Source of the DNA: Escherichia phage vB_Ec_DUEC01
Sequence record: PQ799475.1
Strand: one strand, 5' to 3'
DNA: 43,949 nt
The notes beneath the pieces were generated by a model. That model was not told where the DNA came from and searched no databases. It was given only the letters and a program-made list of their open reading frames with translations. The translations under genes and the position numbers were made by a program. Each line of letters opens with the position of its first letter. The first letter of the stretch is position 1. Shown in pieces: positions 33,178 to 33,517 of this stretch.

Positions 33178-33208
33178 TTGTTTCTCTCCTCTCGTTTGGT
33201 ATGGGCTA

Positions 33209-33237
33209 ACTATAATAGCGAACTATTCACATGTCAA
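33209..33237 (-). promoter_or_regulatory. sigma70-like promoter TTGACA-N17-TATAGT (minus strand)
   Basis: TTGACA tgtGAATAGTTcGCTAT TATAGT; overlaps operator-like repeat 1. Confidence 0.55.
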
Positions 33238-33281
33238 TGGGCTTTTCTAAAATAATTAATATGGTACTATTCACATATCAA
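33222..33281. promoter_or_regulatory. two 16-bp direct repeats ACTATTCACAT(G/A)TCAA (candidate operators)
   Basis: copies at 33222-33237 and 33266-33281, 15/16 identical, in the divergent region next to the XRE gene. Confidence 0.45.
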
Positions 33282-33301
33282 CTGACTAAGGAGTAATTGA
33301 C

Positions 33302-33517
33302 ATGCAACCATCTGAACTAGGCATCCGTGTAGAACAACGCCGCAAAGAACTCGGCATCTCCCAGCGCCGTTTGGCGGCCCTGACCGGCGTTTCCCAGGGC
33401 GCGATTAACCAACTGGCACTTGGAGTAACTCAGGACGTCCGCCCGGCAACGCTGTTCAAACTGGCGGAAGTTCTGGAAGTAGACGCCAAGTGGCTGGCGT
33501 TAGGTGAAGGGGCTTAA
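33302..33517 (+). CDS. XRE-family HTH transcriptional regulator (Cro/CI-like)
   Basis: 71 aa; RRLAALTGVSQGAINQLALG helix-turn-helix; RBS AAGGAG; lone + strand gene inside the minus-strand replication arm. Confidence 0.75.
   Translation: MQPSELGIRVEQRRKELGISQRRLAALTGVSQGAINQLALGVTQDVRPATLFKLAEVLEVDAKWLALGEGA

Follow-up and report, generated by a model that had tools for sequence, protein, structure and literature searches.

The 43,949-nt DNA of Escherichia phage vB_Ec_DUEC01 (PQ799475.1; this whole stretch is called the window below) contains a gene coding for a Cro/CI-type helix-turn-helix (HTH) regulator of 71 amino acids (aa), preceded by short repeated sequences that overlap two divergent promoters. 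The closest match to the window was Escherichia phage NicoleGrasset_Bas72 (Bas72), with ~99.9% identity over the 1.6 kb compared around the regulator gene; over the same 1.6 kb, identity to many phages of the genus Kagunavirus (Guernseyvirinae) was 88–99%, and 411 phage records matched. Kagunaviruses are virulent siphoviruses with genomes of ~41–44 kb, their virulence being described in PMC9825357. A first-pass annotation of the window had proposed that the regulator recognizes two 16-nt direct repeats upstream of its gene and switches part of the adjoining replication/recombination operon. The locus contains the following features (palindromes are given without a strand):

32677..33177, − strand: gene for a 166-aa acidic protein of unknown function (phrog_3127) with no Pfam domain; first gene downstream of the leftward promoter
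33209..33237, − strand: leftward promoter TTGACA-17-TATAGT (11/12 match to the sigma-70 consensus), driving the 166-aa gene
33214..33227: O1, AATAG-CGAA-CTATT, a perfect palindrome within the leftward promoter's spacer (about −25 to −12)
33222-33237, + strand: repeat 1, ACTATTCACATGTCAA, made of the right arm of O1, a variable linker and the complement of the −35 TTGACA
33226-33253, + strand: alternative promoter for the regulator, TTCACA-16-TAAAAT, from a promoter scan
33258..33271: O2, imperfect palindrome AATAT-GGTA-CTATT (one arm mismatch), overlapping the −10 of the regulator's own promoter
33262..33270, + strand: likely own promoter of the regulator, as read from the sequence, with an extended −10 (TGgTACTAT) and a poor −35
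33266-33281, + strand: repeat 2, ACTATTCACATATCAA, comprising the right O2 arm, some of the −10 and the first bases of the HTH transcript
33302..33517, + strand: gene for the 71-aa HTH_3 regulator, stop codon included (open reading frame with ATG start, Pfam match, relatives in the PDB, AlphaFold2 model)
33506..33533, + strand: intrinsic terminator (hairpin at 33506-33526, then a T-run) closing the monocistronic HTH transcript; computed, and also annotated in the record of Kagunavirus fBC-Eco01

The regulator gene has a ribosome binding site (AAGGAG, 33288-33293), and its product, with the recognition helix GVSQGAINQ, is covered by the Pfam profile HTH_3 (PF01381; E-value 3.9e-13, 49.7 bits against a cutoff of 23, profile positions 2–55 of 55). 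Its nearest sequence relatives in the PDB were 434 Cro and the DNA-binding domain of the 434 repressor (E-value ~1e-5), followed by P22 c2. A single-sequence AlphaFold2 model (pLDDT 81) contained helices at residues 5–17, 21–28, 32–39 and 48–68, and a Foldseek search with this model retrieved proteins of the XRE fold, namely HipB, 434 Cro and repressor, P22 c2, SinR and the controller (C) proteins of restriction-modification systems (TM-scores of 0.6–0.7 and probability 1.0, with E-values of only ~1e-2). By domain and fold, the protein belongs to the Cro/CI HTH_3 family, as the first-pass annotation had recognized. In this family, 434 Cro, the 434 repressor and P22 c2 bind palindromes of 14–18 bp as dimers; the presence of palindromes beside the regulator gene, and beside genes for its homologues, is in line with the prediction that it too would bind a palindromic operator as a sequence-specific dimer.

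Relatives were collected in a protein-guided scan of IMG/VR, which yielded 80 loci (numbered with the prefix L). These included 36 Kagunavirus loci, one intermediate locus (L042, regulator 78% identical), 10 Jerseyvirus loci (48–49%) and four Cornellvirus-like loci (41–43%); the Kagunavirus, L042 and Jerseyvirus loci formed the 47-locus set used to assess conservation. In the Bas72 record, no coding sequence (CDS) but that of the regulator lies on the + strand from an excisionase-like gene to the helicase end of the replication arm, and the other + strand open reading frames in the replication arm of the window lie antisense within minus-strand genes, which agrees with the earlier description of an isolated + strand gene in a minus-strand arm. 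The RefSeq entry of the type species K1G (L086; NC_027993, 33428-33640) lacks an annotated CDS for the regulator, though the reading frame is intact and 93% identical. In the window, the regulator is convergent with the primase gene and the T-run of its terminator lies on the + strand only, so leftward read-through antisense to the regulator is possible. This convergence results from an inversion of the primase segment in Kagunavirus and Jerseyvirus. In Cornellvirus and in Serratia phage Tsm2 (Guernseyvirinae), the regulator and helicase-primase genes are co-directional and diverge from the leftward operon (L004, 34354-37005; L005, 4112-7002; L087, 6799-9567); the antisense arrangement is therefore lineage-specific and not essential.

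The two direct repeats named in the first-pass annotation (ACTATTCACATRTCAA) are present and are identical at 15 of 16 positions, with 44 nt from start to start. The likeness extends to 25 nt at 84% identity (33213-33237 and 33257-33281), and the 16-mer, allowing up to three mismatches, matched the window four times against 0.51 expected. Their proposed positions also held: repeat 1 lies over the −35 region and spacer of the leftward promoter (33237..33209), which probably serves the genes further downstream, towards the exonuclease gene, as well, while repeat 2 overlaps the likely −10 of the regulator (TACTAT, 33265-33270), preceded by TG at 33262-33263. TACTAT is also the −10 of TTGCAC-17-TACTAT promoters elsewhere in the window, and in Jerseyvirus the regulator promoter reads TTGCGT-17-TACTAT. 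As an operator unit, however, the 16-nt repeat did not hold. Across 36 distinct Kagunavirus sequences, the arms of O1 and the −35 and −10 regions of the leftward promoter were invariant, the palindrome being exact in 36/36 with a variable centre, whereas the linker between CTATT and TGTCAA (the ‘CACAT’ part of repeat 1) varied in both sequence and length (4 or 5 nt). Since this variable stretch is the middle of repeat 1, the direct repeat is not the unit under selection. Part of the likeness between the two copies comes from the −35 TTGACA in copy 1; the TTGATA of copy 2 is not kept in Jerseyvirus. O2 showed the same single arm mismatch in 36/36 Kagunavirus loci and reads ATTAC-TGTA-CTATT in Jerseyvirus. 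Two inverted repeats considered as operators, ATTCACATGTCAAT (33225-33238) and ATTGACATG (33296-33304), were ruled out as they are not conserved in relatives.

The conserved core of these sites is thus the 14-bp palindrome AATAG-N4-CTATT, whose 5-4-5 layout is suggestive of an operator. This is the operator geometry of the 434/P22 family, and P22 operators share an AG-N4-CT core. The palindrome is not confined to the regulator locus. The octamer ACTATTCA occurred six times in the window against 1.0 expected, all six lying inside an AATAG-N4-CTATT palindrome, and the palindrome itself was found in seven exact copies (5121, 13887, 27358, 30914, 33214, 36857 and 38227). In an unbiased count of all palindromes of the form 5-N(0–10)-5, it ranked first with these seven copies; the runners-up had three and were mostly terminator stems. 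Allowing one mismatch, 14 copies were present in the window against 1.03 expected, a number reached in 0/100 shuffles (outside Kagunavirus, genome-wide counts with one mismatch are too noisy to use). Ten of the 14 (the seven exact copies, O2, 41640 and 5212) coincide with a sigma-70-like promoter, seven of these assignments being firm. Of the 12 best-scoring sigma-70-like matches in the window, six fall on the palindrome. Besides O1 and O2, the promoter-associated copies are:

5121..5134: on the −10 of a leftward TTGCAC-17-TACTAT promoter serving a 67-aa gene (4891-5094)
5212..5225: one-mismatch copy AATAG-TTGA-CTTTT overlapping a TTGACT hexamer; promoter assignment uncertain; kept in K1G
13887..13900: on the −10 of a leftward TTGCAC-17-TACTAT promoter of a superinfection-immunity-like 68-aa gene and a 376-aa gene; kept in K1G
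27358..27371: in a TTGACG-17-TATAGT promoter upstream of 63-aa, 264-aa and helicase genes; conserved in relatives
30914..30927: in a TTGACA-17-TATAGT promoter (11/12) upstream of the genes for single-stranded DNA-binding protein and DNA polymerase; conserved in relatives
36857..36870: on the −10 of a rightward TTGCAC-17-TACTAT promoter of a small-gene operon starting near 36904; conserved in relatives
38227..38240: on the −10 of a second rightward TTGCAC-17-TACTAT promoter; conserved in relatives
41640..41653: one-mismatch copy ACTAG-TTGA-CTATT on the −35 of a TTGACT-17-TATATT promoter upstream of packaging/structural genes, presumed late; conserved in Kagunavirus

The copies occupy three registers relative to the promoter elements. 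In the first, the palindrome lies in the spacer of a leftward TTGAC(A/G)-17-TATAGT promoter, centred at about −18.5 (27358, 30914, 33214); in the second, its right arm falls within the −10 of TTGCAC-17-TACTAT, with the centre at about −12.5 (5121, 13887, 36857, 38227); in the third, a one-mismatch copy covers the −35 of the presumed late promoter (41640). Because the registers with respect to −35 and −10 differ, the palindrome is not itself a sigma-70 element. A role as an RNA hairpin is unlikely, as the copies of the spacer type lie upstream of the transcription start. At orthologous promoters in the 47-locus set, the 4-nt centre is free to vary but the arms AATAG and CTATT are retained; position-wise information, computed from 49 type-A and 103 type-B non-redundant sites, was near maximal in the arms and low in the centre. 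The Jerseyvirus counterpart of the 41640 site carries its mismatch in the other arm (AATAG-TTGA-CTAGT). The 5121 site had no counterpart in a scan of K1G, where the matching interval has no annotated minus-strand CDS.

The same motif has been reported before under another reading. The fBC-Eco01 paper (PMC9825357) lists seven ‘phage-specific promoters’ detected with PHIRE (consensus tgAATAGTa-ccTATTat-T) and ascribes them to a phage-encoded RNA polymerase, without mention of their palindromic nature or of a link to the HTH gene. These sites, annotated in record OM272052, correspond to AATAG-N4-CTATT. The assignment to a phage RNA polymerase cannot be right: the sites bear −35/−10 pairs of the sigma-70 type, and none of the large open reading frames of the window codes for an RNA polymerase, those of at least 640 aa being syntenic with genes for tape measure, tail proteins, DNA polymerase and helicase-primase. 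In the searchable literature, no paper was found that ties the motif to an HTH_3 regulator, nor any described regulator of gene expression in the Guernseyvirinae. A paper on Serratia phage eta was set aside because only the structural module is shared.

The strongest evidence on which protein reads the palindrome comes from unrelated immunity loci. Five independent, distant CI-like homologues of the regulator (31–45% identity; L058, L062, L072/73, L074 and L085; those of L058 and L072 are ~230 aa long) lie in immunity regions of temperate type, each paired with a divergent Cro-like gene. In all five, the cI-cro intergenic region contains A(A/T)TAG-N4-CTA(A/T)T, a motif expected by chance ~0.08 times per 20-kb locus. 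Two or three copies ~24 nt apart were found in L058, L073 and L074, one exact and one one-mismatch copy in L062, and a single scored copy in L072 and L085. Four of the five loci have a second operator-like pair, with its members 25 nt apart, at a distance of 0.6–2.4 kb, a layout resembling that of the right and left operators (OR and OL) of lambdoid phages. The recognition helices of the CI-like proteins are of the form [ST]QGxI (SQG(L/T)I(G/S)Q, TQGLISQ or SQGAITQ) and those of their Cro-like partners read (V/I)TQ(G/S)AIS(Q/H), compared with VSQGAINQ in the window; in the same locus set, homologues with other recognition helices had no A(A/T)TAG-N4-CTA(A/T)T sites. The sharing of one palindrome family by homologues with similar helices thus links the HTH protein to the motif. 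Cornellvirus also speaks for this link: its recognition helix, VTQSAISH, is that of the L072 Cro-like protein, and its promoters lack AATAG-N4-CTATT and carry ATTAS-N4-STAAT instead (4–5 per genome against 0.6–0.7 expected). The immunity regions with OR-/OL-like ATTAG-N4-CTAAT clusters (L058, 9674-10669; L062, 9651-10453; L072, 9671-10657; L074, 9707-10411) are themselves uncharacterised. When the L058 CI-like repressor was used as a tblastn query, no close relative that has been characterised was retrieved; the top match, to Burkholderia phage KL4, was 48% identical, and no operator defined by experiment could be transferred from there.

A second small gene for a DNA-binding protein lies nearby:

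36239-36421, − strand: excisionase-like HTH_17 gene, 60 aa

Several observations weigh against assigning the palindrome to the HTH_3 regulator. Its arms partly coincide with −10-like hexamers (TACTAT, and TATAAT on the opposite strand), so promoter function could explain part of their conservation. The motif is common to Kagunavirus and Jerseyvirus although regulator identity between the two genera is only 49% and the recognition helices differ (QGAINQ versus QSLITH). In Cornellvirus, the enrichment of the variant motif ATTAS-N4-STAAT is modest, the shuffle maximum also being 4–5 per genome. Helix and motif give an ambiguous pattern over the three genera, with the same motif and different helices in two and both differing in the third, and in the wider family several helices accompany A(A/T)TAG half-sites, so that this comparison speaks neither for nor against the assignment. 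Between the Kagunavirus and Jerseyvirus (SE2) HTH_17 proteins, identity is 82%, and Cornellvirus lacks the gene; this distribution mirrors that of the motif and, taken alone, would favour HTH_17 as the binder. Finally, the one available Kagunavirus RNA-seq study (K1B4; PMC12645636) is coarse: gene 004, presumed by gene order only to be the orthologue of the regulator, falls in its broad ‘middle’ class, and the presumed HTH_17 orthologue in its ‘early’ class.

That another protein reads the palindrome (HTH_17, the 376-aa protein or a host protein), with the 71-aa protein acting on a different target and the site perhaps having a positive role such as loading a modifier of RNA polymerase, is unlikely, although it accounts for the phyletic pattern (HTH_17 is 70–82% conserved in the motif-sharing Kagunavirus and Jerseyvirus and missing from motif-less Cornellvirus), for the early class of the presumed HTH_17 orthologue and for the lack of a palindrome in the promoter of its operon (TTGCTT-17-TATACT, ~36445-36473, minus strand). 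The fit to HTH_17 is broken by Tsm2, which has the HTH_3 gene and AATAG-N4-CTATT at orthologous promoters and no HTH_17 homologue anywhere in its genome. Palindrome-bearing promoters match the sigma-70 consensus at up to 11 of 12 positions, and promoters so close to consensus can work without an activator. Members of this palindrome family also lie beside genes for HTH_3 homologues in unrelated immunity regions, and winged HTH proteins of the excisionase type usually act on direct or irregular repeats. Since Tsm2 keeps the motif without HTH_17 and the palindrome promoters need no activator, the palindrome can be assigned to the HTH_3 protein with moderate confidence from the sequence comparisons.

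It is more doubtful still that nothing binds the sites, and that they are duplicated promoter cassettes in which the palindrome arises as a by-product of back-to-back −10-like hexamers (TATAAT ... TACTAT/ATTATA). The flanks do place TATAAT on one strand and, on its complement, TACTAT or TATAGT, and PHIRE had detected the sites merely as repeated 20-mers. Against this, the arms show no change at orthologous sites (47 loci, two genera) whose centres, linkers and flanks have diverged, the far arm of each site plays no sigma-70 role, and the palindrome occurs in three registers relative to the core promoter elements. Least probable is the local switch of the first-pass annotation, in which the regulator would bind the direct repeats and control only itself and the adjacent replication/recombination operon: the repeats are real and flank divergent promoters, and a regulator gene adjoining its own sites is the usual arrangement, but relatives do not preserve the 16-nt unit (in copy 1, the CACAT linker differs among them in both sequence and length), what they do preserve is a palindrome, as 434/P22-type HTH_3 dimers bind, and at least seven more copies are found at other promoters, as far as 28 kb off.

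The reading preferred here, to which we give a probability of roughly 0.6, is that the 71-aa protein acts as a dimeric repressor of the 434 Cro type, with AATAG-N4-CTATT as its operator and a regulon of dispersed sites. With the palindrome in most of the other recognisable promoters, the regulator is probably a genome-wide brake on phage transcription and not a local switch. The sequences themselves show the motif, its frequency, its promoter setting, its pattern of conservation and its association with this HTH clade; from these we infer binding, repression in preference to activation, and a graded order of occupancy, as follows. After infection, the host RNA polymerase would fire the palindrome-bearing promoters, and the regulator would be made from its own weak monocistronic unit, ending at the terminator. 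As it accumulates, it would first fill the perfect operators, inside the RNA polymerase footprint, and so lower transcription of the replication/recombination operons, of the small-gene operons read rightward and of the moron-like genes read leftward at 5121 and 13887. Only at higher concentration would it reach the imperfect operators, which cover its own −10 and the −35 of the presumed late promoter. Its autoregulation would thereby be delayed, and expression would shift, in relative terms, towards the late genes, the effect on the late promoter being only possible. Overall, the regulator may exert a Cro-like negative feedback, or timing, across the genome.

The finding is real and wider than the first-pass annotation suggested, though it represents a well-known type of system, a Cro-like repressor with its operators. 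The resemblance to the 434/P22 proteins includes the single HTH_3 domain of ~70 aa, operators that overlap divergent promoters beside the gene, and 14-bp palindromes with conserved outer bases and a variable centre. Unlike in those phages, no partner CI gene, S24 cleavage domain, tripartite OR or integrase accompanies the regulator, and the phage is virulent; compared with 434, the operator differs (AATAG-N4-CTATT versus ACAA-N6-TTGT), as does the distribution of sites (genome-wide versus OR and OL only). The locus is not a lambdoid lysogeny switch. In place of a divergent repressor pair with a multi-site operator, it has a neighbour coding for the 166-aa acidic protein and two sites only, 44 nt apart; the regulator, at 71 aa, consists of the DNA-binding domain alone, with no S24 or oligomerisation domain. 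Neither an integrase nor a maintenance function is annotated in the complete K1G record or in the inspected 13.6-kb stretch of Bas72, and the window's own open reading frames were scanned only in part; the first-pass annotation had likewise found no integrase and taken the locus not to be a lysogeny switch. An integrase was not reported for fBC-Eco01 either (PMC9825357).

The role proposed for the regulator resembles that of lambda Cro. During lytic growth, lambda Cro is a small repressor made from an early promoter that lowers early transcription and its own synthesis. The two differ in fold, and lambda Cro acts at two operator clusters only; here, the operator would be present in essentially every recognisable promoter, with a weak copy on the presumed late one. 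A layout with many copies of one short site at promoters, far above chance, is found in the window as it is in other dispersed-operator systems. For P1 C1, the phiC31 repressor (CIR sites) and mycobacteriophage L5 gp71 (stoperators), one repressor uses many short sites at early promoters or in intergenic regions; the P1 and L5 sites are asymmetric, and all three proteins are immunity repressors of temperate phages. The window differs from these in belonging to a virulent phage and in coding for a minimal Cro-like domain. The C proteins of restriction-modification systems, of which C.BclI, C.AhdI and C.Esp1396I were among the Foldseek matches of the regulator model, are similar in being dimeric HTH_3 proteins of ~75–80 aa with unequal paired palindromes in their own promoter and delayed autoregulation. 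However, a C protein first activates from its strong site and later represses from its weak one, within a single operon, and there is no restriction-modification context in the window.

Some further features were observed at other sites. Between the HTH_17 operon and the rightward operator-bearing promoter, ~430 nt are gene-poor (36430-36900); they contain a + strand promoter close to consensus (TTGAAA-18-TATAAT, 36519-36548), a hairpin whose arms are 15 bp long (36573-36610) and, near 36749-36772, a GC-rich hairpin followed by TTT, with no Rfam match. This stretch may serve as a leader or origin-like region, or encode a small RNA; an Rfam scan of the whole window at gathering thresholds gave no match to a structured RNA. 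At 13887-13931, the operator stands back to back with a rightward extended −10 promoter (TTGGGG-16-TGaTAGAAT) of the tail-chaperone genes, its centre at ~−45 relative to that promoter; this is a position from which CI-type proteins can activate. The 376-aa protein (12497-13627, − strand), whose gene shares the operator-bearing 13887 promoter with that of the superinfection-immunity-like membrane protein, seems, judging its translation by eye, to combine an HTH-like segment at the N terminus with a phosphoesterase-like body; its annotation is ‘DNA repair exonuclease’ in K1G and ‘transcriptional regulator’ in VSiA. Some Kagunavirus loci from IMG/VR carry, at +4150 to +4650 from the start of the HTH gene, an extra AATAG-N4-CTATT copy after tandem GGTGTAACAGGT repeats, an element absent from the window.

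What appears to be new is which sequence is the true operator, how widely it occurs (in most recognisable promoters of a virulent subfamily) and its link, by comparison, to an operator family of temperate CI/Cro pairs. More tentatively, and with some doubt, the Guernseyvirinae might run most of their host-RNA-polymerase transcription through one minimal Cro-like repressor, with three registers and graded operator strength timing the early-to-late shift and buffering expression against genome copy number; that the same circuit also permits a reversible, integrase-free silent carrier state is less likely. Kagunavirus and Jerseyvirus are among the phages most often isolated for therapy or biocontrol of Escherichia coli and Salmonella, and Kagunavirus CM001 serves as an engineering chassis. 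If the preferred reading is right, it would correct the published RNA polymerase assignment, rescue a gene missing from the K1G RefSeq annotation and provide, as tools, a compact set of repressible promoters in several registers. One repressor and a 14-bp operator would then explain how expression is ordered in a phage that has no RNA polymerase of its own.

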